64,000 bases of DNA from Planctomycetota bacterium (GTDB lineage: Bacteria; Planctomycetota; Brocadiia; Brocadiales; Bathyanammoxibiaceae), in NCBI GenBank assembly GCA_023261505.1, contig JAHFOV010000003.1, positions 3,911 through 67,910 on the forward strand. Reading direction: 5' to 3'. Below the pieces are notes generated by a model, which did not search any database, was not told where the DNA came from, and saw nothing but the letters and a program-made list of their open reading frames with translations. The position numbers were made by a program, and so were the translations under genes. Positions 1,811 through 59,408 of this stretch are shown here, piece by piece (the stretch's first letter is position 1; each line of letters begins with the position of its first letter).

Positions 1811-1908
1811 CCCGAATTCGGATTGCAGATTTCGGAATGCGGAATTCTCTTTTTCCATTCCGCACTCCAGATTCCGCATTCCGAAATCTGCAATCCGCAA
1901 TCTGCTAT
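1811..1908. repeat. Heptamer-periodic array (14 x 7 nt) containing a perfect 27-bp inverted repeat
   Basis: Splits exactly into cccgaat tcggatt gcagatt tcggaat gcggaat tctcttt ttccatt ccgcact ccagatt ccgcatt ccgaaat ctgcaat ccgcaat ctgctat. Bases 1819-1845 are the exact reverse complement of 1871-1897, with a 25-nt loop. The array starts 1 nt after the clpP stop, so it may act as a terminator. Confidence 0.85.
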
Positions 1909-2593
1909 GGACCCAAAGCTCTTAAAACTAGGTGGTTGGGGAGCTATAATTTATGCGCTCTCCACCGCCTTTTTTTATGCCTACCTTTATTGGCGCTGGC
2001 CCGTTTTGGGAAGACAGGATGCTGAGGCTGTATTGAAGGCGGTCGGACAAAATATAGCCTGGTGGCAGGCCTTCTGGTGGATGGGGATTTTTGTCTCCTT
2101 TTCTCTTATCCCAACCTTCCCAGCCCTTTGCCAGGCCCTTTTAAAGACAGAACCTGCATATGCTTATATTGCCCTGTTTTTTGCCTTCATTGCCATTATA
2201 TTGGGTACCCTCAGCCCCCTAAGGCACGCCACTATTACTCCTACACTGGCAGAACTTTACACCAAGACTACGGACGAAGGCATCAAACAGACAGTTGCCT
2301 TGATTTATAAGGCCCAGGAAGCCTATGGGCAGGGTCTCTTCTGCGTCTATGGCTCTACATGACTGGTAGGCTGGGTGGGCCTGGGAGGCCTTGCCATGCT
2401 CTCCAATCCTGACTTCCCACAATACCTGGGCTGGCTGGGTATCATTGTAAGTGTGCTGTGGATTCTAGGCATAATCTCACGCATACTATACCCCATCCAT
2501 CTACTACAAGGCCTCGTCCTCTTCTCTTTCCTCCTGTGGGTCTTCCTCACAGGGTTAAGGCTTATTAAACTCTCAGCCTGGCACGGGGTGTAG
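1907..2593 (+). pseudogene. Polytopic Trp-rich membrane protein interrupted by one in-frame TGA (2360-2362)
   Basis: ORFs 1823..2362 and 2375..2593 share a frame and are separated only by TGA (..CVYGST-TGA-LVGWVGLGG..). Both halves are hydrophobic. The start is probably ATG 1907, because 1823-1906 is the hairpin repeat. Confidence 0.5.
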
Positions 2594-9281: not shown

Positions 9282-10664
9282 ATGAAGTATAAGGCATGGT
9301 TCCAGTGCAGCGCTGGCTGTGGTGAGCGGCATGGGCTGAATGAGATTGTGTATAATTGTAGTCGCTGCGGCGAGCTACTGGAGGTAGCCCACGATATTGA
9401 CGCACTCAAGCAGAGAAAGCCCACCGCATGGAAACGTCTCTTTAACCGCCGCTATATGCGCACTAACTGGCCTTATGGAAGTTCTGTTTGGGGAAAGAAA
9501 GAGCTGGTATGTCCCAATGTGGAGAATAAGAACATAGTCTCCCTTTATGAGGGAGGGAGTAACCTTTTCTGGGCAGAGCGCCTCGGCAGGGAGATAGGGT
9601 TAAAGGACCTCTGGCTAAAACAGTGTGGTAATGCCCATACTGGGTCATTTAAAGATCTAGGCATGACTGTGTTGGTCTCTATGGTCAGGCAGATGCTCTA
9701 CGAGGGGAAAGAAATCCTTGGGGTAGCATGTGCTTCCACAGGGGATACCTCTGCTGCCCTGGCTGCATATTGTGCGGCGGCAGGGATTCCGGCCATTGTG
9801 TTTTTACCTAAGGACAAGGTTTCCAGTTCCCAGTTAGTTCAGCCACTGGCCAACAACGCCTTAACCCTCTCTATAGACACTGATTTTGATGGATGCATGA
9901 AGCTGGTGAAGGAGTTATGTGCCAGAAATAATATCTACCTGGCCAACTCTATGAATTCCTTGAGGATTGAGGGCCAAAAGACTATAAGCATAGAGATTGC
10001 CCAACAGTTTGATTGGGATGTACCAGATTGGGTAATAGTTCCAGGGGGTAATTTAGGAAACGTCACGGCCCTTGGGTTGGGCTTCTTGATTATGAGAGAC
10101 CTTGGTATTGTGAATAAGATACCCAGGATTGCCTGCGCTCAGGCCCAGAAGGCCAATCCCCTCTATCTCAGTTATCTCAAGGAGTTCAAGGAGTATAAGC
10201 CTATCCAGGCCCAAAAGACCCTGGCCAGCGCCATACAAATAGGTAACCCTGTAAGCATAAAAAAGGCCATAAAGATTATTCAACTCTTTAATGGGGTAGT
10301 GGAGCAGGCCTCAGAGGATGAACTGGCAAACGCCGCAGCCAGGGCCGATCGTACTGGCCTGTTTAACTGCCCTCATACAGGCGTAGCCCTGGCCGCCTTG
10401 ATAAAACTACTAAAGAGAGGAGAGATAAAACCCGATGAAAGGGTAGTAGTTATCTCCACAGCCCACGGGTTGAAGTTCCCAGATTTTAAGATTCATTATC
10501 ACGAAGGAACCCTGGAGGAAGTAACACCCCTATACAAGAACGAACCAGTCGATGTTCCGGCTGATTACGAGACCGTAAGAGGTTCTATTCTCAGAGCCCT
10601 TGAAAAAGGGTTTTACGACTATAAACCTACAGTTAGGCCGGGGCGCACACTGATAAAGGACTAA
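9282..10664 (+). CDS. thrC: Threonine synthase with an N-terminal Cys4 zinc-ribbon
   Basis: PLP-lysine motif [10 protein letters not shown]. The N-terminus is [28 protein letters not shown] lies just upstream of ATG 9282, so the ORF-track TTG 9234 is probably an over-extension. Confidence 0.9.
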
Positions 10665-13133: not shown

Positions 13134-14690
13134 ATGAAACCTACTTACCTCCCTGTTTATTCAGAATTTAAGGAGTTAGCTAAACAAGTCCTTGAGCGAA
13201 GCGAAGGAAAGGCCGGGTCGCTAGCACCGCAAGCAATAGTGCCTGTTTATCGCCAGCTAATGGCTGACACCCTTACTCCAGTCTCCGCCTTCCAAAAGAT
13301 AGTGGGGCCATCTCCAAAGGGTCTATCCGGGCACGCCTTTCTACTGGAGAGCGCAGCAGGAGGAGAAAAGATGGCTAAATCTTCATATTTAGGCGTTGGT
13401 CCTTTTATGGAGGTCTGGAGCAGTGGTAACCAAATGGAGATTCTAAATGGCCTTTCTAAAAAAATACTGAAGACTCAGGACCCTCTGGGCACCCTGGAAG
13501 GTTTGATAAGAAAGCATTCCCAGGCTACCCTTCCAGAATTGCGCCGCTCGGCAGTGGCAGTTGGATACATAAGTTACGATACTGTACGCTTCATTGAGAA
13601 ACTGCCCTACAAAGCTGTAGACGACCTTCGACTTCCAGACCTTCTTTTCATGTTTTTTGATTCCCTGGTCATCTTTGACCATCTAAATAAGACAGTGAAG
13701 GTCGTCTCCAATGCCCATCTGGAAGATGAGAAAGATCCCGCACCGGCTTACCGGGACGCCATCCAAAAGATTGACTCCCTTGTAGAAAAGCTCAGGACTC
13801 CCATCTTTACAATTAGTGATGATATTAATACTGACGGCGAGGTTACTTTACGCTTCTCTTCCAACTTCAAAAAAGAAGATTTTCTAAAGGCAGTTCAAAG
13901 ATGTAAGGAATACATTAAAGCAGGGGACGTTTTTCAGGTGGTTCTGTCACAGAGATTGGCTGTGAAGACGCAGGCCGATCCCTTCAACATATACCGAGCC
14001 TTAAGGGTGATAAACCCTTCTCCTTATATGTTCTATTTAGACATGGGTGAACTCAAGCTTATAGGTTCATCCCCTGAGGTAATGGTAAAGGTAGAAACGG
14101 GAAAAGTAACGGTCCGACCAATTGCAGGTACAAGAAAGCGTGGCTTCAATGAGGAAGAGGATGCAAGGCTCGAGAAAGAATTACTAGAAGACCCGAAGGA
14201 AAGGGCTGAACATATAATGTTAGTGGACTTAGGAAGGAACGATGTAGGAAGGGTGGCGGAGTACGGGAGCGTATCTTTAGAAGACAAGATGGTCATAGAG
14301 AAATACTCCCACGTCATGCATATCACTTCTTCCGTGACAGGCAAACTACGGCAGGATAAGAGTGCCTTTGATGCCCTGAAGGCCTGCTTACCAGCAGGCA
14401 CCTTATCAGGAGCACCAAAGGTAAGGGCCATGGAAATCATTGAAGAGCTGGAGCCTACCCGCCGAGGCCCTTATGGTGGTGCGGTGGGATACGTCGATTT
14501 CTCTGGAAATATGAACACATGCATAACCATTCGTACTATAACAATGAAAGGAGACACAGCCTACATTCAGGCAGGGGCTGGAATAGTAGCCGATTCTATA
14601 CCCGAGAGGGAGTACGAAGAAACCCTCAACAAGGCCAAAGGCCTCCTAAAGGCCATAGAAACGGCGGAGAGGATGGAAGCCGCCCAATAA
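13134..14690 (+). CDS. trpE: Anthranilate synthase component I (chorismate-utilising enzyme)
   Basis: 518 aa with the LLESA..GGE..SYLG N-terminal region, IAGTRKRG, AEHIMLVDLGRNDVGRV and GGAVGYVDFSGNMNTCITIRT motifs. No trpG follows. Confidence 0.85.
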   Translation: MKPTYLPVYSEFKELAKQVLERSEGKAGSLAPQAIVPVYRQLMADTLTPVSAFQKIVGPSPKGLSGHAFLLESAAGGEKMAKSSYLGVGPFMEVWSSGNQMEILNGLSKKILKTQDPLGTLEGLIRKHSQATLPELRRSAVAVGYISYDTVRFIEKLPYKAVDDLRLPDLLFMFFDSLVIFDHLNKTVKVVSNAHLEDEKDPAPAYRDAIQKIDSLVEKLRTPIFTISDDINTDGEVTLRFSSNFKKEDFLKAVQRCKEYIKAGDVFQVVLSQRLAVKTQADPFNIYRALRVINPSPYMFYLDMGELKLIGSSPEVMVKVETGKVTVRPIAGTRKRGFNEEEDARLEKELLEDPKERAEHIMLVDLGRNDVGRVAEYGSVSLEDKMVIEKYSHVMHITSSVTGKLRQDKSAFDALKACLPAGTLSGAPKVRAMEIIEELEPTRRGPYGGAVGYVDFSGNMNTCITIRTITMKGDTAYIQAGAGIVADSIPEREYEETLNKAKGLLKAIETAERMEAAQ

Positions 14691-15125: not shown

Positions 15126-16908
15126 ACCCAAAGATCTTAAAGTAATCCTAGCTACCGACTGTGGTAGCACCACCACCAAAGCAATCCTTATAGAAAAAAA
15201 GGGGGAGGAATATAGGCAGACCTACCGTGGAGAGTCACCCACCACTGTGGAAGCCCCTTTTGAAGATGTCACTCGAGGGGCACTAAACGCCTTCGCAGAG
15301 TTGGAAGAGCTCTCTGGAAGGAAAATATTGGACGGAGAAAAGATTATAATGCCTGCCAGGGATAACGTGGGTGTGAACATCTATGTCTCTACTAGTAGCG
15401 CCGGTGGAGGGCTGCAGATGATGGTAGCCGGGGCAGTGAAGACTATGAGCGCCGAAAGTGCTCAAAGGGCCGCCCTGGGCGCCGGAGCTATTGTTACAGA
15501 TGTTATAGCCTCTAACGACAAAAGGCTCCCTCACGAGAGGATAGAGCTAATTCGGCAACACCGCCCTGACATGATACTCCTTTCGGGGGGGACGGACGGG
15601 GGTACTGTATCTCATGTTGTGGAACTGGCCGAACAAATCGCTGCCGCAAACCCTAAAGCTCGCCTTGGCACGACCTTCAAGCTACCTGTCCTTTATGCTG
15701 GAAATAAAGACGCAAGGGATATTATCAGTAAGGTGTTAGAAGAAAAAACCTACCTCCAGATAGCAGAAAACCTGCGCCCCACACTTGAGGCTGAAAACCT
15801 GATGCCAGCCCGACAAAAGATACAAGAACTCTTTTTGGAACATGTCATGGCCCATGCCCCTGGCTATAAGAAACTCATGACCTGGACCTCTACCCCAATA
15901 ATGCCCACTCCTGCGGCAGTAGGGGCAATCATAGAGAGCAAGGCAAAGAGAGACGGTATAAATATCGTGGGGGTGGATATCGGCGGCGCCACCACGGACG
16001 TATTCTCCGTCTTCGATGGCAACTTTACCAGAACGGTAAGTGCCAACCTGGGGCTTAGCTACAGCATCTCCAATGTCCTAGCCGAAGCAGGGGTGGAAAA
16101 CATACTCAGATGGATACCTTTTGATATGGATGAGGCAGACCTTCGCAATCGAGTAAAGAACAAGATGATACGACCAACTACAATACCTCAAACTCTGGAG
16201 GGGTTGCAGATGGAACAGGCCATTGCCAGGGAGGCCCTTCGTCTGGCTTTTGAACAACACAAGTCCTTGGCTGTAGGCCTGAAGGGTATCCAAAGGGTGA
16301 GGGACATCTCAGAGACCTTTAAAGAGGCAAAGGTGGAAACCCTGGTAGATATGCTGAAACTGGACCTCATCATTGGCAGCGGAGGGGTACTCTCTCATGC
16401 CCCCAGGCGCGCCCAGGCTGTGCTCATGCTTATAGATGCCTTCCTTCCAGAAGGCGTAACCCGGCTTGGAGTGGATAGCATCTTCATGATGCCTCACCTC
16501 GGAGTGCTATCATCCATACACCCAGAGGCTGCACAAGAAGTCTTTGAAAAAGATTGCCTCATTCCACTGGGAGCATGCCTGGCTGTCATCAACATAGGCA
16601 GGCTCGGTGAAAAATGCCTGGATATTAAAATACATTACCAAGACGGCAGAAAAATAGAGGAGAGCATCCCTTTTGGTGAATTGAAACTTTACCCCCTTGG
16701 TCCGAAGGAGGAAGCAGAGCTGGAGGCCCATCCCACCAGGCAATTTGACCTGGGTAAAGGCAAGGGCCATGCCCTAAAGACCAGGGTCCGTGGAGGCGTT
16801 GTTGGCCTTGTGGTAGACACTAGAGGAAGGCCCTTAAATATACCCAAAGACAAGGCCAAACGAATAGAACTCCTCAAGAGATGGGCTTCGGCCCTAGGGG
16901 CCTTTTGA
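15118..16908 (+). CDS. MutL/GlmL-family ASKHA ATPase (operon gene B)
   Basis: Two ASKHA phosphate-binding motifs, ILATDCGSTTTKAILI and VGVDIGGATTDVFSV, plus LLSGGTDGG. The protein resembles the glutamate-mutase accessory protein family. The start is taken at ATG 15118 (MVEPKDLKV..). Confidence 0.75.
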   Translation: MVEPKDLKVILATDCGSTTTKAILIEKKGEEYRQTYRGESPTTVEAPFEDVTRGALNAFAELEELSGRKILDGEKIIMPARDNVGVNIYVSTSSAGGGLQMMVAGAVKTMSAESAQRAALGAGAIVTDVIASNDKRLPHERIELIRQHRPDMILLSGGTDGGTVSHVVELAEQIAAANPKARLGTTFKLPVLYAGNKDARDIISKVLEEKTYLQIAENLRPTLEAENLMPARQKIQELFLEHVMAHAPGYKKLMTWTSTPIMPTPAAVGAIIESKAKRDGINIVGVDIGGATTDVFSVFDGNFTRTVSANLGLSYSISNVLAEAGVENILRWIPFDMDEADLRNRVKNKMIRPTTIPQTLEGLQMEQAIAREALRLAFEQHKSLAVGLKGIQRVRDISETFKEAKVETLVDMLKLDLIIGSGGVLSHAPRRAQAVLMLIDAFLPEGVTRLGVDSIFMMPHLGVLSSIHPEAAQEVFEKDCLIPLGACLAVINIGRLGEKCLDIKIHYQDGRKIEESIPFGELKLYPLGPKEEAELEAHPTRQFDLGKGKGHALKTRVRGGVVGLVVDTRGRPLNIPKDKAKRIELLKRWASALGAF

Positions 16909-16975
16909 ACTCTTAGGCCTTTAGAATTTATACTTTAATTCCTTTGAACTTTGAACCTTTAAACCCTTAAACTTT
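16909..16975. repeat. Degenerate 7-8-nt tandem array (CTTTGAA / CTTTAAA words)
   Basis: The sequence reads ..ggccttta gaattta tacttta attccttt gaacttt gaaccttt aaaccctt aaactttt and fills the whole B-C intergenic gap. Confidence 0.6.
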
Positions 16976-16981
16976 TTGTTT

Positions 16982-20046: not shown

Positions 20047-20151
20047 AAATTAAAGTTCAAAGTTTAAGAGTTCAAGTGGTTAAGGGGTTAAAAGTTCAAG
20101 AGTTAAAATGTAGCCGCAGGCTTTAGCCTGCGTTCAAGGATCAAAAGTTAA
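20047..20151. repeat. Degenerate 8-nt tandem array (AGTTCAAG words) with an embedded 7-bp GC hairpin
   Basis: The sequence reads aaagttca aagtttaag agttcaag tggttaag gggttaaa agttcaag agttaaaa. The hairpin CGCAGGC-TTTA-GCCTGCG is at 20115-20132. The word set is the reverse complement of the 16909-16975 array. Confidence 0.6.
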
Positions 20152-21731: not shown

Positions 21732-21773
21732 CTAGAGATTAGGGGGTAAGGATTGGGGGAAATAGTATAAAGA
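21732..21773. repeat. TAGGGG-type heptamer array
   Basis: The sequence ctagaga ttagggg gtaagga ttggggg aaatagt ataaaga begins immediately after the gene G stop. Confidence 0.6.
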
Positions 21774-21836: not shown

Positions 21837-21912
21837 TGGTAGCGGGGAGAGGATTCGAACCTCCGACCCGCGGCTTATGAGTCCGCTGCTCTGCCAACTG
21901 AGCTACCCCGCC
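21837..21912 (-). tRNA. tRNA with CAU anticodon (elongator Met, or Ile2 if lysidine-modified), CCA encoded
   Basis: The reverse complement folds as a cloverleaf: acceptor GGCGGGG/CCCCGCU (G1-U72), U8 A9, D arm GCUC-AGUUGGCA-GAGC, anticodon arm GCGGA-CUCAUAA-GCCGC, variable loop GGGUC, T arm GGAGG-UUCGAAU-CCUCU, then ACCA. It has no initiator features. Confidence 0.9.
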
Positions 21913-21914
21913 AC

Positions 21915-21935
21915 CGGTTAGGGGTTAGGGTTCAG
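21915..21935. repeat. TTAGGG-type heptamers (ggttagg ggttagg gttcagt)
   Basis: Read directly from the sequence. It abuts the 5' end of the tRNA gene. Confidence 0.55.
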
Positions 21936-22104
21936 TCAATTTTAGTAGGATTTGCGCCCTAAACCCAGATACTTTTAAAATATGAGATTACTTCGCTCGC
22001 ACGACGGTTCATGTTTTATGGTTATTGCGAAGGCGAAGCCTTGAAACAATTTTACTCCTTGTAACAAAGTTTAATACAACTTTTGAGAGTTTTCAAGGGG
22101 TAAA

Positions 22105-22167
22105 CTAGGGGTTAGGGAATAGGGTTTAGGGGCTAGGGATTAGGAATTAGCGAGTAGGCGGAGAGGA
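22105..22167. repeat. Nine-unit TTAGGG-type heptamer array
   Basis: ctagggg ttaggga atagggt ttagggg ctaggga ttaggaa ttagcga gtaggcg gagagga. It is inverted relative to the array at 22571-22598. Confidence 0.7.
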
Positions 22168-22177
22168 CAAGTTAGTC

Positions 22178-22492
22178 TTACGTTCTAAACTTAAGTTTGG
22201 ATAGCAAAGAATTTATCATTTTACTTAGTTCTTCTATTTCTTTCTGCAACGGAATGATTTTGCCTTGATGCGTAAATTTTAATTCAACAGCCAGCACTAA
22301 CAATGTCTCCATTTCAGCTAAAGAACCTAGGGCAACATACAAGAATTGCCTAAACTCTTTTGTGTACTTTCTTGTATGCCCTTCAGCAATATTTGAAGGT
22401 ACAGATATGGCAGCACGCCATAGCTGATTAGTTAAGCCATAAAGCTCGATTTTAGGAAAGATTTCTGAAATAATATATATTTGTTTTGCCAA
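22178..22492 (-). CDS. Four-helix-bundle protein (23S rRNA intervening-sequence protein family)
   Basis: YGLTNQLWRAAISVPSNIAEGHTRKYTKEFRQFLYVALGSLAEMETLL is the signature region of this family. Confidence 0.9.
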   Translation of the reverse strand: MAKQIYIISEIFPKIELYGLTNQLWRAAISVPSNIAEGHTRKYTKEFRQFLYVALGSLAEMETLLVLAVELKFTHQGKIIPLQKEIEELSKMINSLLSKLKFRT

Positions 22493-22570
22493 CCTTATAG
22501 ACCTTTTTCAAATATCAAGGTCTTTAAAGTTCTTTATTCTGTTTGCCATCTATAGATAATAGACGCTTCT

Positions 22571-22598
22571 TCTCTAGTCCCTAACCCCTAGCCCCTAA
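22571..22598. repeat. Inverted TTAGGG-type heptamers (tctctag tccctaa cccctag cccctaa)
   Basis: This is the reverse complement of the word set at 22105-22167. It overlaps the last 6 codons of purD (..RLGARG-stop). Confidence 0.65.
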
Positions 22599-23888
22599 TC
22601 TTGCGATGGCACGCCATCCTATGTCCTTTCGATAATAGGCACCGTCGAAGCTAATTTTTTCAGCCGCACTATAGGCCTTTTTCTGGGCCTCGGGCAAATC
22701 CTTACCTAGAGCGGTAACGCCCAAAATCCTTCCCCCTGTGGTAACAACCTTCTTCTGCCTTAGAGCAGTACCAGCGTGGAAGACCATCAGATCCTCAGCT
22801 CCAGATAAGGCCTCAAGCCCCTTTATCTCTTTTCCTTTTTCATAATTGCCTGGATAACCTGCGGAGGCTATGACTACACATAGGGCCGCCCTTGGATCCC
22901 ACCCATATTCCACCTTCTCCAGTCGTCCTTCTACAGTGGCAAGAAGGAGACTCAAGAAATCTCCCTGCAATCTCATTAGTAAGGGCTGCGTCTCAGGGTC
23001 TCCAAACCGCACGTTATACTCTAATACCCTTGGGCCAGCAGCGGTTAGCATCAAACCTACATAAAGCACCCCCTTAAAGGGTCTTCCCTCACGTTTCATG
23101 GCATGCACAGTGGGGACGAGAATCTCTTTCTCTACCTTGATCGAGAGTTCTTGAGTGAACTTGGGCACTGGTGTATAAGCTCCCATGCCTCCTGTGTTTG
23201 GCCCCTTATCTCCCTCATACAGCGCCTTATGGTCTTGGACCGGTTCCAGAGGTATAATACTTTTTCCATTAGTAAGGGCCATGATGGAGACCTCTTCCCC
23301 TTCCAGATACTCCTCAATTATTACCCTCTCTCCCGCTGGCCCAAAGACCTTTTCTCTCATAATTAAATCGACGGCCTTCAGGGCCTCTTCTGGACTCTTG
23401 CAGACAAAGGAACCCTTCCCCCCTGCCAACCCATCCACTTTTACCACCAAAGAGCCGTTAATACACTCTATATGCCTCTTGGCAGGTGTAATCTCGCTAA
23501 AGATGCGAAACTCGGCGCTGGGAATACCGTACTTCCTCATAAGGGTCTTGGAAAAGGCCTTACTCCCTTCCAGGAGAGCTGCTTTCTTCGTGGGGCCAAA
23601 GGCCCTTAATCCGTTAGCCTGGAAGCGGTCTACCAGTCCTGCTACCAAAGGTACCTCCGGGCCAACTACTGTAAAATCCACTTTCTCTTTAAGAGCGAAG
23701 TTACAAAGGGATCCTATATCATCTGAGGTAATGTCCACGCAGTCTGCCACAGATGCGATACCTGGGTTCCCAGGGGTACAGTAGAGCTTTTTAAGTCTGG
23801 GAGACTGGGCGATCTTCCACGCCAGACAATGTTCCCTCCCCCCGCTTCCAATCACTAACACTCTCAACGGCGATTCCTCCAGTTTCAA
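22581..23888 (-). CDS. purD: Phosphoribosylamine--glycine ligase
   Basis: RVLVIGSGGREHCLAWKIAQSP N-terminus, an ATP-grasp core and GPNTGGMGAY. Confidence 0.92.
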   Translation of the reverse strand: MKLEESPLRVLVIGSGGREHCLAWKIAQSPRLKKLYCTPGNPGIASVADCVDITSDDIGSLCNFALKEKVDFTVVGPEVPLVAGLVDRFQANGLRAFGPTKKAALLEGSKAFSKTLMRKYGIPSAEFRIFSEITPAKRHIECINGSLVVKVDGLAGGKGSFVCKSPEEALKAVDLIMREKVFGPAGERVIIEEYLEGEEVSIMALTNGKSIIPLEPVQDHKALYEGDKGPNTGGMGAYTPVPKFTQELSIKVEKEILVPTVHAMKREGRPFKGVLYVGLMLTAAGPRVLEYNVRFGDPETQPLLMRLQGDFLSLLLATVEGRLEKVEYGWDPRAALCVVIASAGYPGNYEKGKEIKGLEALSGAEDLMVFHAGTALRQKKVVTTGGRILGVTALGKDLPEAQKKAYSAAEKISFDGAYYRKDIGWRAIARLGARG

Positions 23889-25557: not shown

Positions 25558-25569
25558 GCCTAACAACAT

Positions 25570-25625
25570 ATTACAAATTACAGATTACACATTTGGAATT
25601 TACAATTTGAAATTTGTAATTTGGT
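25570..25625. repeat. Eight-unit heptamer array (ATTWSNN)
   Basis: attacaa attacag attacac atttgga atttaca atttgaa atttgta atttggt. It lies between the convergent htrA and topA stops. Confidence 0.75.
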
Positions 25626-34050: not shown

Positions 34051-34123
34051 ATACGGGCCTAGATAAATCCCTATGCCAGTGTAACCTTCTCTACTGCGGC
34101 GCAGACCTCATATTCTGGAGTTG

Positions 34124-34200
34124 TGGTCACAGGTCACAAGGAACATGAAAAAGAGAAAATCTTTACTTAGTACCTGTTTCCTGTTTCCTGTCCCCTGTTG
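34124..34200. repeat. Heptamer array with inverted halves (GGTCACA... / ...CCTGTTT)
   Basis: tggtcac aggtcac aaggaac atgaaaa agagaaa atcttta cttagta cctgttt cctgttt cctgtcc cctgttg. The right half encodes the last 13 codons of fdhA. Confidence 0.7.
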
Positions 34201-36916
34201 ATACTTTTACTAATCTACCTTCTCCTACCCTCTCCACCCTTGCAGCGCAGACTTTGTACTCGGGGGTCATAGTGATGTTATCGTAGGCGCTTACGGTGAG
34301 GCGGTTGGCGGCAGCCTCGGCGTAGTGCATTGGCATCCAGATAACCCCTTCCTTTATGTCTACCACATGGGCCCTGGCCAGCACTTCTCCACGGCGAGAG
34401 ATTACCCTCACCACATCTCCATCTTGAACTCCATACATTGAGGCATCATAGGGGCTTATCTCCACAAAACATTCGGATTCCATCTGAGTGCACCCCGCAG
34501 AGCGGCGGCTCATAGTCCCCGCATTGTATTGGAAGAGGGTACGGCCTGTAGAAAGGATAAGGGGGAATTCACTGTCCGTCTTCTCTGCTGGTGGGCGGCA
34601 GGGCGGTGCATAGAACTGGCCTAATCCTCTAGCAAAGGTATCTTTGTGCAGGTACTGGGTGCCGGGATGGTCTTTAGTGGGACATGGCCACTGGATACCT
34701 ACCTTTTCTATCCTGTCGTAAGAAATGCCTCCAAAGAGGTTAGGTGCAAGAGAGGCCAGTTCGTCCCATATCTCACTGGGATGATTGTATTTCATAGGAT
34801 AACCCATCCTTGTTGCTAGCTCACATATAATCTGCCAGTCTGCCCTAGAGTTGCCTATGGGTTCCACGGCCTTTCTGACCCGCTGCACTCTCCGCTCGGA
34901 GTTGGTGAAGGTCCCGTCCTTCTCGGCGGCACTGGCTGCGGGAAGGATAACCTGGGCGTACTTTGCCGTCTCGTTCAGGAATATGTCCACTGCTACAACG
35001 AATTCCAGGTTCTTGAGTCCACTTATTATATGTTCCTGATTAGGCTGGCTCATGACAGGGTCTTCGCCCATGATGAAAAGGGCTTTAAGTTTTCCTTCAT
35101 TAGCGGCGTCAAACATCTCAGGGGACATTAGCCCCTTAATGGCGGGCAATTTAACCCCCCAGGCCTTCTCAAACTTCTCTCTTACCGCCCTGTCAGCTAC
35201 CAACTGGTATCCATGGAATTTGTCGGGTGTAGTACCCATATCTGTGGCACCCTGGACATTGTTCTGTCCTCTCAGGGGGTTCACACCTGAGCTAGGTTTT
35301 CCTATGTGCCCTGTAAGCATGGCAAGGTTGGCTATGGTGCGCACGGTTTCAGTACCGCAGACGTGCTCCGTTATTCCGAGGGTATAAAATATGGCGCCCT
35401 TATCCGCTTCGGCGTAAAGTCTTGCGGCCTCTTTAATATCCCTAGCTGGTACACCAGTTATCCTCTCGGCCTTCTCAGGGGTGATGTCTTTACAATATTC
35501 CTTAAGGGCCTCAAAGCCTTCTGTTCTATTGCGGATGAATTCCTTATCCTCCAGCCCCTCAGAGATAATGACATTCATTATGGCATTAAGGAGGATACAA
35601 TCTGTTCCTGGTCTTACCTGTAAGTGATAGTGTGCCCTCTCCGCCAGCCAGGTCTTTCTTGGGTCTACCACAATGAATTTGGCACCCCTCCGGAGGGCGG
35701 CCCGCATCTGTAGTCCTATAATAGGATGGGCCTCTGTGGGGTTGGCTCCAAGGAGGAAGAGTACATCGGCGGAGGGTATCTCCCCAATGGAATTGGTCAT
35801 AGACCCACTACCAAAGCTTGCGGCCAGACCGGCCACAGTGGGGGCGTGTCAGGTACGGGCGCACATATCCATGCTATTGGTTCCCACCACTGCACGGGCA
35901 AACTTCATCATCAAATAATTCTCTTCGTTTGTGCACCTGGCGGAACCAATGCAGGCTATGCTCTGGGAACCGTATTTTTCCTTGATTTCCAGTAATCTGG
36001 AGGCAACGAGGCTCATGGCCTCCTCCCAACTGGCCTCCTCCAATCTTCCACCTCTTCTTATCAGGGGCTCTGTGAGGCGGTCGGGATGATGGACAAAGTC
36101 GTATCCGAAGCGACCTTTTATACAGAGATTCCCATTATTGGGTACTGTGCCTACTTCTGAGGTCACTTTTACTAACTTGCCTGTATTTGTATTTACGTTC
36201 AGGAAGAGGTTACAGCCAACCCCACAATAGGCGCAGACGGTTTGCGTCTTTTTTAGCTCCCATGCCCTGCCCTTGCCTTCTGCCTGTTTTTCCCTAAGTG
36301 CCCCTACTGGACAGGTGGAAACGCACTGCCCACAGAACTCACAGGTGGTTCCCAATAGGGTATCGCCATAAGCCGGACCTACTACAGAATCGAAACCGCG
36401 GTTTATAAAGTCCAGGGCCTCAGCCTGTTCCACCTCATCACATATCCTGACACAGCGACCACAGAGGATACACTTAGAGTCATCCCTCAGTATCATGGTG
36501 TTTGGGTCTGGGACTATCCCTCTCTGCGGCTGTCTGAAGAAGCGGCTCTCTTTTATTCCATACTCATAGGCGAGGTCTTGCAGTGTACAGGTGCCACACT
36601 TATCGCAGGTCATGCAATCAAGGGGATGGTCAGAAAGGATGAGTTCCAGTATGAAACGGCGGGAATCCATGACCTTTTTGGTGTTAGTTCTGACCACCAT
36701 GCCTTCCTGTATCTCTGCGGAGCAGGCAGTCTGGAGGGTACGCGCCTTTTCCACCTCCACAAGGCATACCCTACATGCCCCAAAGGGTTTCAGCCTGGGG
36801 TCGTGGCATAGAGTGGGAATCTTTATACCTAAACGGCTAGCTACTTCTAGGATGGTCTGCCCTGGAGTGGCCTCTACTTGCCTATCATCAATAGTGAGCC
36901 TAATCTTCTGCACCAA
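34163..36916 (-). CDS. fdhA: Selenocysteine-containing formate dehydrogenase alpha subunit (NuoG-like Fe-S N-terminus plus molybdopterin domain)
   Basis: ORFs 35849..36916 and 34163..35836 are in frame across TGA (35851-35849): ..[30 protein letters not shown].., the canonical FDH Sec context. The N-terminus has 2Fe-2S (CHDPRLKPFGACRVCLVEV) and 4Fe-4S motifs. Confidence 0.9.
35804..35851 (-). promoter_or_regulatory. UGA(Sec) codon plus SECIS-like stem-loop
   Basis: Downstream RNA: lower stem CCCACU/AGUGGG (35842-35837 / 35809-35804), upper stem GUGGCC/GGCCGC with apical loop GGUCU (35830-35826). The loop begins 19 nt after the UGA. Confidence 0.65.
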
Positions 36917-54443: not shown

Positions 54444-55676
54444 ATGAGGACTAGTAGGGGCGTTCAAATTGAACGCCCACACCTAGCAATACATACTTCT
54501 CCGCCTAAGTCATTTACGTTGTTAGAGATAATAACGGTCATAGCCATCATAGCTATCCTTGGAGGAGCGATTGTACCCCTGGCCTTTCAAGACCTGAACA
54601 ATAAGAAAATAAAAGCCACAGAAAATAAGCTTTTAGAATTTAAGAGTGCAATAATAGGTAACCCCTTCTTTGTTGATGGCGAAGTAAGAACCTCTTTTGG
54701 ATACTTGGGGGACATGGGGAATCTACCCGGCAGATTAGAAGATCTTTATATAAAAGGCACACAGCCAAGTTATACATATAACGCGGCGCTGAAAACGGGA
54801 GCTGGTTGGCGCGGGCCATATCTAGACCCTAAGATTCTTGAGGATCTGACCGCCGTAAAACTGGATGGTTACGGCAAGGAACTAGCATATACCACTACAG
54901 AATTCATTGATGCACAAATAGGGGCATCCGTAACGGGAGAAGTCATCAGCTTTGGCCCAGACCGTGAAATGGGTGGAATAGATGACCTTAGCGTGGAGGT
55001 CTTCCGCTCAGAGGTCTTTTCTACAGTCTCTGGTTACGTTAAAGATATGGAAGGGAAAAGGGTGCCAGGAATTACGGTAAGAATGAATTCCCCTATAAAT
55101 GGCCTCCTCGTACAGTCCATCGCTACAACCAACGACGCAGGTTTCTTTAGCTTTACCAACACCCCCTACGGAATCCGCAGCATCACTTTAGAACCGAGGC
55201 TGGTGTATGCCCCGGACAGTGCCAAGACTGCTGGAGATGCACAGGATAACCTTGAGTTTAAAATAACTAATCTTTATTCTCAGAATCTGAGTATAAACTC
55301 CATAATAGTAAACTTCAGTTTATTTCCAGAGGCCTATTTCAGCGAGTTGTGGATTGCCGGACAGCGGGTCTTTAACGCCTCCGCTCAGCGAGCAAGGAGT
55401 GGACAGCTTATAAACTATACTCCAGTTACCATCAGCGGCAGTGGAGCCACCCCTTCGGGGCAGAGCCATGTTATCCAGGTTCAATCCCCCCAGACACAGC
55501 TTGGTGATTTCAGCCTGGAAAACGTTGCTGCTGGAGGTACGGTAAGTTTAGAGATAAGAGGCTTCAAGGATCGTCCTACAAGCGGGGGTGATAACCCAGT
55601 AAATGTGAGTGGCACTACTTTTGAAATTTCCTTCAGCGATGGTTCAACAATCATTTTTACCCCTACCAGGCACTAG
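54444..55676 (+). CDS. Giant GspG-like pseudopilin paralog 1 (N-terminal pilin helix, GspG-like head, CarboxypepD_reg-like domain, unknown C-terminal domain)
   Basis: ..PPKS-FTLLEIITVIAIIAILGGAIVP, GWRGPYL, VSGYVKDMEGKRVPGITVRM...TTNDAGFFSFTNTPYG, and a C-terminal ..TFEISFSDGSTIIFTP. Confidence 0.75.
   Translation: MRTSRGVQIERPHLAIHTSPPKSFTLLEIITVIAIIAILGGAIVPLAFQDLNNKKIKATENKLLEFKSAIIGNPFFVDGEVRTSFGYLGDMGNLPGRLEDLYIKGTQPSYTYNAALKTGAGWRGPYLDPKILEDLTAVKLDGYGKELAYTTTEFIDAQIGASVTGEVISFGPDREMGGIDDLSVEVFRSEVFSTVSGYVKDMEGKRVPGITVRMNSPINGLLVQSIATTNDAGFFSFTNTPYGIRSITLEPRLVYAPDSAKTAGDAQDNLEFKITNLYSQNLSINSIIVNFSLFPEAYFSELWIAGQRVFNASAQRARSGQLINYTPVTISGSGATPSGQSHVIQVQSPQTQLGDFSLENVAAGGTVSLEIRGFKDRPTSGGDNPVNVSGTTFEISFSDGSTIIFTPTRH
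54458..54478. repeat. Perfect 21-nt palindrome GGGCGTTCAA-A-TTGAACGCCC
   Basis: Read directly from the sequence. It lies 28 nt after the SRPBCC stop, inside the nominal leader of pseudopilin 1. Confidence 0.7.
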
Positions 55677-55677
55677 G

Positions 55678-56835
55678 ATGAGACAAAGGGGCTTTACTCT
55701 TATAGATGTAATAATTATCCTGGCAGTGACAGGCATCCTGGCCAGCGGCATGGTCACCTTCGTTTTCCAGGCCGTAAATAAAGAGCGAGAAGATAAGACT
55801 ATTGAACACCTGAATCGTTTGAAGGTGGTGGTAACTGGCAAGCCCCTTAGCATGCGCCATGGAGAACAAACGTCTTTCGGTTACTTTGGTGATATGGGGG
55901 GTCTGCCTTCTCAATTGGCTGACTTATATGTCAGTGGCACGCAACCGATCTACACTTTCTTCCCCTCCCTTAAGGCAGGGGCTGGTTGGAATGGGCCTTA
56001 TCTTGACCCAGAAATAGTTGAATACATTACTAACCTAGATAAGGACTGTTTTGGTAGGGATCTCCAGTATTCTACTACCCCCTTTGTGGACGCTACTGTA
56101 GGGGAGACAGTGGAAGGCATGATTATCAGCCTGGGAAAGGATGGTAAGCCCGGTACAGGTGACGACCTTTCAGTAGAATTTTTTACCAACGAACTGTATT
56201 CCAGCGTCTCAGGCTTTATTAAGGACATAGACGGTAAAGGTATAGGTAGTGTTACTGTGACAATTAATTACCCCAGTAATGGCACCCTCACTAGCTTTAT
56301 AGCAATTACGGATGCAGATGGTTTCTATAGCTTTAACCGCGTTCCTTCCGGCAATCACAGTTTGAGCCTTACCCCTGGGCTTATTCTGGCCTCAGGCAGT
56401 GGCCGTACCCTGGAGAATGGGACTATAGTTGCCTTTTCTATAGTTAACACTTCAACCAATAGCGTTACTATAAGCGCCTTTCGTGCCATATATAACGTTA
56501 ACCCTCCTGCCTTCTACCAGAGGGTCAGTATAGGTGGGGCATCAGTCTTTAACAGGCCCAACCCAATGGTGGCCAGTGGTGAGACAATATCTTTCCCTCC
56601 AATAACTCTGCCAGGAGCTCCTGGCACTCTCGAAGCAGTTCCTATCCGTGTCCGGTCTCCTGTTACAGAGGTTCCAGATATTTTTCCGAACAATCTGGGT
56701 AGAGGCCAAACTATTGAAGTAAGGATCGAACATTTTAATAATACCCAAAACGGCTCAGGCGGCGATGCAAATATGCGTGGTATACCTTTTGAGATAACCT
56801 TCAGTGACGGTTCTATAGTTACTTTCACCCCGTGA
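55678..56835 (+). CDS. Giant GspG-like pseudopilin paralog 2
   Basis: MRQRG-FTLIDVIIILAVTGILASGMV, GWNGPYL, VSGFIKDIDGKGIGSVTV...TDADGFYSFNRVPSG, ..PFEITFSDGSIVTFTP. ATG 55678 lies 1 nt after the paralog-1 stop. Confidence 0.8.
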   Translation: MRQRGFTLIDVIIILAVTGILASGMVTFVFQAVNKEREDKTIEHLNRLKVVVTGKPLSMRHGEQTSFGYFGDMGGLPSQLADLYVSGTQPIYTFFPSLKAGAGWNGPYLDPEIVEYITNLDKDCFGRDLQYSTTPFVDATVGETVEGMIISLGKDGKPGTGDDLSVEFFTNELYSSVSGFIKDIDGKGIGSVTVTINYPSNGTLTSFIAITDADGFYSFNRVPSGNHSLSLTPGLILASGSGRTLENGTIVAFSIVNTSTNSVTISAFRAIYNVNPPAFYQRVSIGGASVFNRPNPMVASGETISFPPITLPGAPGTLEAVPIRVRSPVTEVPDIFPNNLGRGQTIEVRIEHFNNTQNGSGGDANMRGIPFEITFSDGSIVTFTP

Positions 56836-56983
56836 GGCTTTGAGGTATATGCATTCTGAAAAAAAGCTACATGTTAAAAAACATAGGACTAGACCCATCG
56901 GCCTGTACGATACGATCCAACTTAAACGAATTCAAAATTCTCTCACAGTGAATCTATCCGTCTCTGACGGAGGCGTCCTATCC

Positions 56984-58156
56984 TTGCACTCATATTCTAT
57001 TGGATTCACAATCCTGGAGATTATTATGGTACTAGCAATATTAGGTGTTCTAGCTGGTGCTATTACTCCTGTAGCTTTACACGTGACGCGGCAAAAGAAG
57101 GAGCTTGCTACCAGCGAAGAACTGCAGACCCTAAAAAAGGCAATAATAGGAAACACGCAATCCATTCAATTTGGTGCGGAGCCCACCTTTGGGTATATTA
57201 AAGATATTGGTAGTCTTCCACAAAACCTTCAAGACCTGTACATTCAGCCTACTGGAATACCCTCTTTTTCCTTTAACAGCACCTTGGGAATAGGTTCCGG
57301 CTGGAGGGGACCCTATGTAGCAAAAAAGGCCTATGCCAGCGTCACAGACTTTATTCAGGACCCATACGGAAGACCTTATGCCTATTCTACCGCTAGTGCT
57401 ATTAATACTACCCTGGGTGTAGAAGTGAGAGGCACCATAAAAAGTCTGGGCAGTGACGGCATCGACGATACCCAGGATGACCTCACTATAGAGATCTTTA
57501 AACCAGAGATCCTAGCCGATGTGGCAGGTAAGGTAAGGGATGTCAGTGGTATTGGTGTATCTACTGTTTACGTGACTATCTATTATCCCAGGGATGGTAC
57601 CCTTACCTCCTCCACTACCCAAACAGACCTGGAGGGGAGGTATCAATTCTCCAATATACCCATTGGAGAGAGGGCCATTACCCTTCAACCAGGACTCGTT
57701 TTTATCCCAGGAACGGCCTTTGCCAAAGGTACTACACAAACAGAGGTGGGGTTTTCTGTGGCCAACCTATCTACCAACGCTATTACCGTCTCCTCCATTA
57801 CCACTTATTATGATACCATGCCGCCCGCCTACTATCGTAGAGTAAGGATTAACGGAAGCATCCTCAGGGATGCCCTTCCAGGGATAGGTACCGGTGAGGT
57901 AGCGAGTTTTGCACCCTTGGTTGTTGTCCCAAGTACTTTACAGAGGGAAGCATTCCACTTCCTGCTCAGGTCTGCCAGTATGGAAATCCCCGATATGGAA
58001 CTAAACACCATAGGGGCTGGCGGCGTAATGACAGTAGAACTAGAAGACTTTACTACTGTCAGGACAGGGGGTTCTCCCGTGGATATGGCAGGGGTTCCTT
58101 TTACTGTAATCTTCAGTAATGGGTCAACAGTTTCATTTACCCCTCAGAGGCAGTAA
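56984..58156 (+). CDS. Giant GspG-like pseudopilin paralog 3
   Basis: TTG 56984 gives the leader MHSYSIG-FTILEIIMVLAILGVLAGAI and has GGAGG 10 nt upstream. ATG 56849 is the alternative and would add 45 aa. Also GWRGPYV, VAGKVRDVSGIGVSTVYV...TDLEGRYQFSNIPIG and ..PFTVIFSNGSTVSFTP. Confidence 0.75.
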   Translation: MHSYSIGFTILEIIMVLAILGVLAGAITPVALHVTRQKKELATSEELQTLKKAIIGNTQSIQFGAEPTFGYIKDIGSLPQNLQDLYIQPTGIPSFSFNSTLGIGSGWRGPYVAKKAYASVTDFIQDPYGRPYAYSTASAINTTLGVEVRGTIKSLGSDGIDDTQDDLTIEIFKPEILADVAGKVRDVSGIGVSTVYVTIYYPRDGTLTSSTTQTDLEGRYQFSNIPIGERAITLQPGLVFIPGTAFAKGTTQTEVGFSVANLSTNAITVSSITTYYDTMPPAYYRRVRINGSILRDALPGIGTGEVASFAPLVVVPSTLQREAFHFLLRSASMEIPDMELNTIGAGGVMTVELEDFTTVRTGGSPVDMAGVPFTVIFSNGSTVSFTPQRQ

Positions 58157-58160
58157 CAGT

Positions 58161-59408
58161 ATGCAACATACCGTAGACAGTAGGCAGGAAAAAAATTCCT
58201 ATATTCTTTCTACTATCTACTGTCTACTACCTACTTTCTACTGTCTACTTAATAAAGGGGGCTTCACTCTTCTTACAGTAATTATAATCCTCACCCTAAT
58301 GGGGGTAGCCGCCGGCATAGCCACTACCTTTATAGGTAAGATTCTAACCGAACGCCGCGAGCTGACTACTGAAGAGGAATTGATGGCCTTAAAGGAGGCA
58401 ATAATTGGTAATCCCAGTCATAAACAAGACAAGAATAATTTTGGGTACCTTGGTAACATGGGAAATCTTCCTGTCACACTGCAAGACCTTTATATGAGAG
58501 GTGACCAACCAGGGTACATCCTGGACCCTGTGGCCCGACTGGGGGCAGGATGGGCAGGTCCTTACATTACACCCCTCCTCAGGGAGGAGCTTTCCAGTCT
58601 TCTTACGGATGCCTTTGGTAACATTTACGAGTATACGACAACTGAATACATCCGTGCGGATGGAGAGATTGTCTCGGCAAGGATACTGAGCTACGGCGAT
58701 GACAAGAAGCCCGGAACGGAAGACGATAAAGAGGTAGAAATTCTACGTAGGGAGATTTATTCCACTGTGTCGGGGTTTGTTACGGATTCAGCAGGAACGC
58801 CCATAGGTGGGGCACCAGTTACTTTGTACTATCCTTATAGAGGCAGCGTCCATAGTCTTAGCATAACTACCAATGTTGAGGGTCTTTTCCAGTTTACAAA
58901 CGTCCCAAATGGTATCAGAACCGTTAAAGCCGCGGGGGGTGGCCTCAGGTATGTTGAAGGTTCGGCACTGGCCACGGGGGAAAATAAGGACAACCTAACC
59001 TTTAAGATAACCAATTGGGGAGAAGGTGCTGTAACTTTAAATTCGATAAGATTGGTGTTCACTCTTTCACCAGCCTATTACGAGGAAGTTTATGTAGGAA
59101 GTACCAGGGTATTCAATTATCTTGATTTCAATGGCCAGAGAGGAACGAGCAACAGATTAATAAACTTTTCTGATACTACAATTCCCGGGGGTGAAAGTGT
59201 AAACATCACAAGGGTTCCAATAAATTCTGATAATATTCTCTTACCCAATATTGTCTTATACCCAAGGGGGGGTACCTTGCTTATCAAGTATGTTAACTTC
59301 AAGAACGATGTCTCCGGGCCTTCCAGCCCTGTTTCTGTTTATGGCGCCAGCTTCACAGTAACCTTTAGCAACGGCTCTCAGTTCTCTTTTATCGCTCAGA
59401 CGCCGTAA
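58161..59408 (+). CDS. Giant GspG-like pseudopilin paralog 4
   Basis: ..LNKGG-FTLLTVIIILTLMGVAAGIA, GWAGPYI, VSGFVTDSAGTPIGGAPV...TNVEGLFQFTNVPNG, ..SFTVTFSNGSQFSFIA. The only canonical start is ATG 58161, which gives a 34-aa leader that includes the heptamer array. Confidence 0.75.
   Translation: MQHTVDSRQEKNSYILSTIYCLLPTFYCLLNKGGFTLLTVIIILTLMGVAAGIATTFIGKILTERRELTTEEELMALKEAIIGNPSHKQDKNNFGYLGNMGNLPVTLQDLYMRGDQPGYILDPVARLGAGWAGPYITPLLREELSSLLTDAFGNIYEYTTTEYIRADGEIVSARILSYGDDKKPGTEDDKEVEILRREIYSTVSGFVTDSAGTPIGGAPVTLYYPYRGSVHSLSITTNVEGLFQFTNVPNGIRTVKAAGGGLRYVEGSALATGENKDNLTFKITNWGEGAVTLNSIRLVFTLSPAYYEEVYVGSTRVFNYLDFNGQRGTSNRLINFSDTTIPGGESVNITRVPINSDNILLPNIVLYPRGGTLLIKYVNFKNDVSGPSSPVSVYGASFTVTFSNGSQFSFIAQTP
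58171..58252. repeat. Heptamer array (TACTNNC x6) with an upstream complementary arm
   Basis: ttctttc tactatc tactgtc tactacc tactttc tactgtc tacttaa. GTAGACAGTAG (58173-58183) is complementary to the two CTACTGTCTAC copies. Confidence 0.7.

Follow-up and report, generated by a model that had tools for sequence, protein, structure and literature searches.

Tandem arrays of imperfect heptanucleotides in intergenic DNA have been reported since 1990 in cyanobacteria, where the short tandemly repeated repetitive (STRR) sequences STRR1–3 have the units CCCCAGT, TTGGTCA and CAACAGT, and later in Xanthomonas, Burkholderia and Beggiatoaceae. To our knowledge, neither a function nor an origin has been established for them. 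Here we describe arrays of this kind in a 64-kb stretch of DNA from a Planctomycetota bacterium (contig JAHFOV010000003.1 of GCA_023261505.1), hereafter the window, starting from a heptamer-periodic hairpin that occupies the 98 nt directly downstream of clpP. The window arrays are heterogeneous heptanucleotide tandem arrays of the published class of intergenic heptamer long simple sequence repeats (SSRs), and are STRR-like. We read them as products of slippage and templated copying that are tolerated in 3′ gaps, and whose hairpin forms would serve as transcript-end stem-loops resembling repetitive extragenic palindromic (REP) elements; we put the probability of this reading as a whole at about 0.5.

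According to the review of Mrazek et al. (2007) in PMC4679880, heptamers were the most abundant among long SSRs with 5–11-nt units in most genomes surveyed, and a DNA-polymerase footprint of ∼7 nt has been proposed to favor slippage (PMC4679880). For Xanthomonas, Rehm et al. (2015) described (GGGANTN)n arrays, ∼185 in number and heterogeneous, and for Nostoc PCC 7120 arrays of GGGGAYT; these are biased toward non-coding DNA, lie near the ends of open reading frames (ORFs), are rare between divergent ORFs, form inverted pairs, are transcribed, and vary extensively between species in the same gaps (PMC4692102). The original prediction, made from the window sequence, had regarded individual local word sets (a word being the repeated heptamer) combined with shared 7-nt phasing as unusual, but heterogeneous arrays that pair in inverted orientation, avoid divergent gaps and turn over between species are already published for Xanthomonas and Nostoc. 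Other intergenic heptamers of Nostoc include (TTGTCAG)n, (ATTGCGA)n, TAGGGGT GTAGGGGT and (TTTTGAA)n (bioRxiv 10.1101/2022.06.06.494920), and marine Beggiatoaceae carry TAACTGA repeats in 169 direct sets and one indirect set (MacGregor 2015, PMC4679880). REP elements, in the account given of them in PMC3733652, have been hypothesized to stabilize mRNA, terminate transcription or affect supercoiling. No description of heptamer repeats in anammox bacteria or Planctomycetes was found in the literature searched.

The 98 nt at 1811–1908, directly 3′ of the clpP stop codon (1808–1810), divide into exactly 14 heptamers, with AAT or ATT at the end of 11, and bases 1871–1897 are the exact reverse complement of bases 1819–1845 (27 nt); both the parse and the perfect inverted repeat had been predicted and hold in full. 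The arms reach 1814–1845 and 1871–1902, 32 nt that are 94% complementary, and the RNA folds at −48.4 kcal/mol (z = −8.6). Like an intrinsic terminator, the element is a stem-loop directly after a stop codon, but its stem of 27–32 bp is far longer, its loop spans 25 nt, and the sequence 3′ of the stem, CAATCTGCTATGG, contains no U-tract. Because the U-tract is absent, the hairpin is not a canonical terminator, and a consensus terminator scan did not report it. Neither the window nor the fetched comparison loci (denoted by L numbers below) hold a second copy of the palindrome, and the tetranucleotides GTAG, CTAC, CGTC and GACG are absent from the arms at 1819–1845 and 1871–1897. In this lineage (window 1811–2362), clpP is followed by the gene for a DUF4386 membrane protein and not by clpX, an order kept in L006, L007, L010 and L012 and not in L005 or L011. 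The ORF called at 1823–2362 runs across the hairpin and is an artefact of ORF finding; databases start this gene at the ATG at 1907.

Tandem Repeats Finder (TRF) reported arrays with period 7, 14 or 21 at 1856–1905, 16941–16976, 20050–20108, 21916–21930, 22106–22158, 22574–22597, 25566–25624, 34173–34199 and 58206–58250. This confirms nearly all of the further arrays that had been listed alongside the clpP hairpin; the one at 21732–21773 is weak, and at 16909–16975 the period is confined to the right half. The arrays are as follows:

1811..1906, + strand: heptamer-periodic hairpin filling the whole clpP–DUF4386 gap, with left arm (NCGGAWT)n and right arm (AWTCCGN)n; downstream ATG at 1907
16941..16976, + strand: direct array (CTTTGAA / CCTTTAAA)n of mixed 7- and 8-nt units, just 5′ of the next gene start
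20047..20151, + strand: direct array (AGTTCAA[G])n running from a stop codon to the ATG at 20152, with a small GC hairpin at 20115–20132 and then further units
21732..21773, + strand: weak (TTAGGGG-like)n array, flanked by the stop of a + strand gene on one side and the tRNA-Met 3′ end (− strand) on the other
21915..21935, + strand: three (GGTTAGG)-type units abutting the 5′ end of tRNA-Met(CAT) (21837–21912, − strand)
22105..22167, + strand: (TAGGGNN)n, 8–9 units, downstream of the 104-aa 23S_rRNA_IVP gene (− strand)
22571..22598, + strand: (CCCCTAR)n, inverted partner of 22105–22167 across the IVP gene, with three G-tracts
25566..25625, no strand assigned: AT-rich heptamer hairpin (ACANATT)4 / (ATTTNNA)5, filling the convergent gap between an htrA-like gene (+) and topA (−)
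34124..34235, − strand: composite arrays, in + strand reading (GGTCACA)2, (CCTGTNN)4 and (CTACCNT)n, overlapping the fdhA 3′ end
58171..58252, + strand: hairpin-type array, GTAGACAGTAGG on the left and (CTACTNT)6 on the right, between two pilin-like paralogues

These arrays share only period and placement, so that the clpP hairpin is not the prototype of a family, as had been supposed. The period itself is well above expectation. Self-identity at lag 7 in pooled intergenic DNA is 0.284 versus 0.263 in dinucleotide shuffles (z = 4.0), with lags 14 and 21 likewise elevated, and stands at 0.248 in coding DNA. Scanned locally with a threshold of 19 matches in 28 nt, the window has eight lag-7 segments, whereas 200 local shuffles average 0.1 and never exceed 2; lags other than multiples of 7 gave 0–3 segments. 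The predicted excess over shuffled intergenic sequence is therefore present, and all eight segments lie in or against gene boundaries.

Placement is equally consistent. By hand count, the ten window arrays lie in seven co-directional or convergent gaps, and the eight divergent gaps hold no array. When all non-redundant loci are taken together, on crude gene calls, 23 arrays can be classified and not one falls in a divergent gap, although such gaps account for 30% of the total gap length (0.70^23 ∼ 3e-4). Arrays are retained solely on the downstream side of one gene or more, in gaps of the co-directional or convergent type. They often span the distance from stop codon to next start codon (1811–1906; 20047–20151), and enter coding sequence at three genes: purD, fdhA and a pilin-like paralogue. 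The genes beside them (clpP, purD, topA, fdhA, pilin-like and tRNA genes) are functionally unrelated; the Pfam scan covered 20 of the ∼58 window proteins.

The same DNA is available from several sources. Over 20.7 kb, the window matches contig DBJWYO010000001.1 of GCA_052360645.1 with 99.875% identity, and over 7.6 kb it matches a Logan contig at 99.97%. An identical ClpP is encoded in the NCBI metagenome-assembled genomes (MAGs) GCA_052360585.1 and GCA_052360645.1, as well as in assemblies from ENA and, for two runs, from Logan. The arrays are found, mostly base for base, in GCA_052360645.1, GCA_052360585.1, ENA ERZ27279563, and Logan SRR14366756 and SRR14366760; those at 16941 and 20047 match base for base in L009, and those at 21915–22598 show no difference in L091. 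Short-read assemblers can mis-resolve repeats, and this general caution is all that speaks for an assembly artefact. Since the same arrays are recovered in independent NCBI, ENA and Logan assemblies, and since they are imperfect and shorter than one read, such an origin is scarcely credible. Among three strains with 99.3–99.9% identity, unit number is unchanged, and the arrays are therefore not contingency loci; the proposed comparison of gaps in related genomes accordingly shows neither expansion nor contraction at this distance. The closest trigger-factor loci among species-representative genomes come from Candidatus Brocadiales and Brocadiaceae MAGs, so the host is an anammox-order planctomycete and not a cyanobacterium, as had been suspected from the sequence.

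Array units are 7 nt and sometimes 8 nt long (the array at 20050 mixes both), with 4–5 fixed and 1–3 variable positions, as in ACA[T/A/G/C]ATT, CT[T/A/G]TCTA, TAGGG[NN], CCTGT[NN] and [G/T]C[G/A]GA[A/T]T. Mismatches cluster by unit column (25 arrays pooled, p = 0.038); several arrays vary at one column, with ACA[T/A/G/C]ATT and CT[T/A/G]TCTA as the extreme cases. TRF identity is higher at a longer period than at period 7 (94% versus 82% at 58210, 83% versus 71% at 22106, and 87% versus 70% near 1876), and this advantage of periods 14 and 21 points to growth by duplication of two- or three-unit blocks. Slipped-strand replication would extend the arrays by 7, 14 or 21 nt, and the second arm of a hairpin may be built by inverted duplication or template switching. 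When the window and 89 fetched loci, with near-duplicate loci left out, were scanned for inverted partners (at least 17/18 matching within 500 nt), 15 of 56 arrays had a reverse-complement match, and the reversed-only and complemented-only controls gave none. The inverted halves that had been predicted for several arrays yield significant folds at 1811, at 58171 (−21.6 kcal/mol, z = −4.0) and at 25570 (z = −2.4 on the + strand and −1.7 on the − strand). No significant hairpin was found at 16909/16941, 20047 or 34124, or in the post-clpP arrays of L005 and L006 (z from about −1 to +0.4).

The clpP hairpin exists in two alleles, that of the window and that of L001, L002 and L004, which differ at 13 of 98 positions and fold alike in shifted registers (window, −48.4 kcal/mol; L001, −47.8 kcal/mol). 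By comparison, 1,000 random mutants of the hairpin, each given 10 substitutions and a 3-nt insertion to match the observed load, have a mean of −32 ± 6 kcal/mol, and ∼1% of them attain the observed energy. Hairpin energy is retained across this one allele pair. The T>G changes at both 1830 and 1832 convert the left-arm unit AGATTTCGGAAT into AGAGTGCGGAAT; the latter is exactly complementary to a different unit, ATTCCGCACTC, which the right arm already has at 1857–1867. This paired change matches the product expected of hairpin-templated (quasi-palindrome) correction and, together with the higher identity at periods 14 and 21, fits the slippage or templated-expansion origin advanced in the original prediction. 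Such correction would hold the arms complementary while register and words drift, and drift of this kind would in turn allow one gap to carry different word families in sister genomes.

The allelic differences extend beyond the array. They belong to a divergent tract at 1723–2008 that includes flanking coding DNA, with ∼28 differences in 290 nt between the window and L001/L002, and a second cluster at 14051–14147, inside the anthranilate synthase gene, holds 12 substitutions and 2 indels in 100 nt relative to L008. In strains otherwise 99.3–99.9% identical, both tracts look like imported recombination tracts, and the divergent hairpin segment was probably imported. Array-specific hypermutation or phase variation was considered and dropped, because the excess in the clpP hairpin sits within this wider tract.

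Word families were predicted to be private to each array. Locally this is so, yet at least three of the six families in the window, (GCGGAAT)n, (AATTGTA)n and (TTAGGGG)n, recur in loci of sister MAGs, and the (AGTTCAA)n family recurs more loosely; of this genome itself, the analysis covered 64 kb. Within the window, arrays of the same family cluster and are often inverted. Two orthologous gaps illustrate the turnover. In the post-clpP gap the window has the (GCGGAAT)n hairpin, L005 has (AATTGTA)n and L006 has (CTTGAAC)n, L010 and L011 show weak stutters, and L012 has no array; the purC–nth gap carries (ATTCCGC)n in L006 and (AATTGTA)n plus (CCCCTAA)n in L011. Between genera, words are replaced completely while the gap stays occupied.

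The wider comparison covered 80 metagenome loci encoding ClpP relatives, on untyped contigs. None of the window word families occurs in 338 kb of GC-poor relatives (ClpP 77–86% identical). Heptamer arrays of the same style are common in the high-GC relatives L058, L062, L063, L070, L071 and L079, with words that include GCGGATT/GCAGATT/CCGCACT. Heptamer-periodic inverted pairs lie at 16661–16713 and 17013–17063 in L079, at 10245–10282 and 10383–10420 in L054, and at 1333–1437 in L071; on high-GC and other unrelated contigs, for instance, (GGAATCA)n and (TGATTCC)n are separated by 300 nt, and the halves of a perfect 38-nt inverted pair by 100 nt. Arrays built in this way are therefore probably widespread outside Brocadiales as well. 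As for published words, STRR1–3, TAACTGA, GGGAATC and GGGGAYT form no tandem arrays in the window, where the STRR1–3 units give only chance-level two-unit near-matches inside genes and TAACTGA occurs as four single copies with no tandem pair. Resemblances to Nostoc words (TAGGGGT as an exact unit at 22106, CTTTGAA beside TTTTGAA, and ATTGCGA) were judged to be at about chance level, with ∼1.4 near-matches expected by a rough estimate, and nothing was built on them.

A recurring set of words could mean that the heptamers are sites for a protein or an RNA-binding regulator, with each word family defining a regulon. A regulator of the S1, Csp or CsrA type has been proposed for TAACTGA repeats (PMC4679880) and an unidentified binding factor for Nostoc heptamers (bioRxiv 10.1101/2022.06.06.494920). 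The recurrence of a small set of families across sister genomes and the fixed core with variable positions in each unit are compatible with this, as is the ending of several co-directional arrays 0–5 nt before a start codon, three of four without a Shine–Dalgarno match; this last look at array-preceded genes involved few cases and crude start calls and is given no weight here. With six or more unrelated word families in 64 kb, however, many different binders would be needed, and no candidate was identified. The arrays also stand in both orientations relative to transcription beside functionally unrelated genes, and orthologous gaps freely exchange families, so we consider recognition by a sequence-specific factor decidedly unlikely.

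Canonical intrinsic terminators are essentially absent in the window's clade. A scan for terminators with perfect stems found 0 in the 64 kb of the window and 1 in 73 kb of close relatives, compared with 43 in 338 kb (12.7 per 100 kb) of the GC-poor relatives (L014–L054) and 2 in 250 kb of high-GC relatives; with the consensus scan, counts in the window equal those in shuffled sequence. In several GC-poor relatives the post-clpP gap itself contains a textbook terminator. Among the relatives, array abundance is inverse to the abundance of canonical terminators, a relation that is suggestive only. A consistent C-rich strand bias of transcribed arrays, of the kind seen in Rho rut sites, was rejected on inspection, as the arrays at 20050 and fdhA are G-rich on the RNA strand.

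These observations lead us to propose, with moderate confidence, that the hairpin arrays may function as REP-like stem-loops in this terminator-poor clade. The hairpin-type arrays, the clpP one included, would be transcribed within 3′ or intercistronic RNA and would act in the manner of REP elements and bacterial interspersed mosaic elements (BIMEs), blocking 3′ exonucleases and reducing read-through or downstream translation. The arrays that do not form hairpins are probably tolerated by-products or unstructured spacers. The structured-RNA role suggested at the outset is hence plausible for the hairpin type, where folding energy is kept and canonical terminators are absent, and fails in its form as a canonical terminator. 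A bolder and unlikely version holds that, in this Brocadiales clade and perhaps in further lineages devoid of canonical intrinsic terminators, the heptamer hairpins are a distinct, self-renewing class of transcript-end elements, standing where sister lineages have Rho-independent terminators, in which templated upkeep of the stem frees the words to drift. There the 7-nt repetition itself would ease regeneration of the stem, and the array would therefore be conserved in its gap while its sequence is not.

Several points weigh against a transcript-end role. Rehm et al. sought a regulatory role for the equivalent Xanthomonas repeats and found none (PMC4692102). A single function cannot cover all of the arrays, since over half of them form no hairpin. 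Retention of the clpP hairpin concerns a single pair of alleles, and concerted evolution alone could be its source. The contrast between terminators and arrays comes from four groups of untyped metagenome contigs that are not phylogenetically independent, and base composition alone may explain the few T-runs in the high-GC group. Harm to promoters would by itself lead arrays to avoid divergent gaps just as well, and the invasion of coding ends looks more like unchecked spread than tuned function.

The main rival draws on much of this: the arrays would be neutral mutational debris from heptamer-biased slippage and template switching, surviving where harmless, with concerted evolution keeping the hairpins. 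Unrelated words in the same gap of sister genomes, with none in L012, agree with it, as do the lack of secondary structure in so many arrays, their entry into coding ends with the destruction of one start codon, the Xanthomonas and Nostoc equivalents without known function (PMC4692102), and the slippage bias from the polymerase footprint proposed for heptamers (PMC4679880). Debris alone accounts less well for the repeated occupation, across several genomes, of two orthologous gaps whose words turn over, for about −48 kcal/mol being kept across alleles 13% apart, for variation concentrated at particular unit positions, and for array abundance inverse to that of canonical terminators; nor are the arrays hypervariable among strains 99.3–99.9% identical, where they are stable. 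We regard pure debris as a real possibility that falls clearly short of an even chance, and retain slippage-born arrays with REP-like hairpin forms as our reading.

The G-rich arrays around the tRNA-Met and IVP genes raise two further explanations. TTAGGGG-family units bracket tRNA-Met(CAT), at 21732–21773 and 21915–21935; since the latter abut its 5′ end, the precursor leader would hold (CCCTAAC)n. This tRNA (21840–21912) is the sole match in an Rfam scan of the whole window at gathering score. The weak array at 21732–21773 is 83% complementary over 23 nt to 22579–22601. On the + strand, 22097–22145 fits the G-quadruplex motif (G3+ N1-7)x4, and as repeats like GGGAATC and GGGGAYT form such structures in vitro (PMC4692102), the (TAGGGNN)n array could be a G-quadruplex or i-motif element like those of Xanthomonas and Nostoc. 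Four G-tracts occur in just one of the ten arrays, however, its partner at 22571–22598 having three, and the clpP element and the AT-rich families have no G-tract at all; as an account of the arrays in general this is extremely unlikely, and for every array but that at 22097–22145 the sequence already rules it out. On the − strand at 22581–22600, the (TTAGGGG)n array provides the last six codons of purD (RLGARG) and its TAG stop.

The gene between these two arrays, 23S_rRNA_IVP (PF05635, a four-helix-bundle family; 22178–22492, − strand, 104–106 aa), is without a canonical start codon and without the first ∼12 positions of the Pfam profile. Inverted 35-nt arms at 22126–22160 and 22564–22598, 80% complementary and 403 nt apart, enclose it in a layout that recalls the ribosomal RNA intervening sequences excised at a flanking stem. 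Mobility of an IVP cassette was considered and set aside, as the identical IVP protein is recorded only in the same context, in two MAGs, and no further IVP gene occurs in 89 loci. At 16941 the word family is the reverse complement of that at 20050 (22 nt are 82% complementary to 20078–20099), so that inverted AGTTCAA/TTGAACT-family arrays bracket a three-gene block (16944 and 20078).

On the − strand at 34163–36916, two adjoining ORFs make up one molybdopterin oxidoreductase gene of the formate-dehydrogenase-alpha type, with an in-frame TGA at 35849–35851 that is a probable selenocysteine codon (motif CART-U-HAPTVAGL). The arrays at 34124–34235 encode the last ∼20 residues of this probable selenocysteine fdhA. 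Downstream of them lies a relic copy of the fdhA 3′ end (34084–34132 versus 34227–34272, − strand, ∼75% identical) that would encode a protein end reading TPEYEVCAAVEKVTLA followed by a stop, the live gene ending in TPEYKVCAARVERV plus the array-encoded 20-residue tail. This suggests an old duplication or insertion event tied to the fdhA array.

Such arrangements could be taken for miniature mobile elements, either miniature inverted-repeat transposable elements or REP elements and their paired hairpin form (REPINs), spread by a transposase such as a REP-associated tyrosine transposase (RAYT), with the inverted arrays as terminal repeats of cassettes like that around the IVP gene. The 35-nt arms around that gene, the same-family pair at 16941 and 20050, the similar inverted pairs in L079 and L054, and the fdhA relic, readable as a long target duplication, would all suit this view. 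Yet the window arrays share nothing past the heptamer word, and are thus not copies of an element; the clpP arms lack the GTAG or CGTC tag by which REP elements are defined in PMC3733652; no clean target-site duplications or empty sites were seen; the fdhA duplicate is only ∼75% identical; and the context of the IVP gene is unchanged in both strains compared. Transposase-driven spread is on these grounds highly unlikely.

The hairpin-type array at 58171–58252 lies in a tandem set of four paralogous genes of ∼410–440 aa (54444–59408, + strand), at least two with a prepilin-type N-terminus (MRQRGFTLIDV...) and two with CarboxypepD_reg domains, and takes the place of the normal ATG region in the downstream pilin-like paralogue, the last of the set. 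The reading frame is uninterrupted across the array from the upstream ATGs at 58119 and 58161, so that this gene would either have a leader of ∼31 or 45 aa or be a pseudogene.

With these data, a lineage of anammox-order planctomycetes joins the known hosts of intergenic heptamer arrays. Three testable handles emerge: hairpin energy is kept by a register shift across alleles 13% apart, two orthologous gaps hold arrays of different word families, and array abundance runs opposite to that of canonical terminators among relatives. A transcript-end role, if true, would bear on how mRNA ends are defined in bacteria without intrinsic terminators; if there is no role, the arrays are a clean example of a strong mutational bias shaping non-coding DNA. 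In either case they are a nuisance for gene callers, with three ORFs here wrongly extended or altered.

Among known systems, the heptamers of Xanthomonas and Nostoc share with the window arrays imperfect 7-nt units with position-confined variation, a strong bias toward non-coding DNA, placement near ORF ends, avoidance of divergent gaps, inverted stem-loop pairs, gaps that stay occupied while sequence and length change, and functionally unrelated flanking genes. The window differs from them in its host, a Brocadiales planctomycete, in having several unrelated word families in place of one dominant G-rich word, and in that the G-quadruplex motif fits only the array at 22097–22145. The likeness to cyanobacterial STRR sequences that had been noted holds for the architecture, tandem heptamers of several word families dispersed in intergenic DNA, and not for the STRR1–3 words or the host, which is a heterocystous cyanobacterium there and a member of Brocadiales here. 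TAACTGA repeats are likewise intergenic direct heptamers that often end a few nt before a start codon without a canonical ribosome-binding site, but they consist of a single word and are nearly always direct, in contrast to the many words and frequent inverted pairs of the window. With REP, BIME and REPIN sequences the hairpin arrays would share a functional analogy, as stable palindromes without a U-tract in transcribed 3′ or intercistronic gaps. REP elements and REPINs are high-copy, near-identical 20–40-nt palindromes with GTAG/CGTC tags and RAYT transposases, whereas the window elements are 7-nt periodic inside and unique in sequence at each site, and the arms at clpP are untagged. The arrays described here therefore belong to a known and still unexplained class of repeats, for which Brocadiales is a new lineage.

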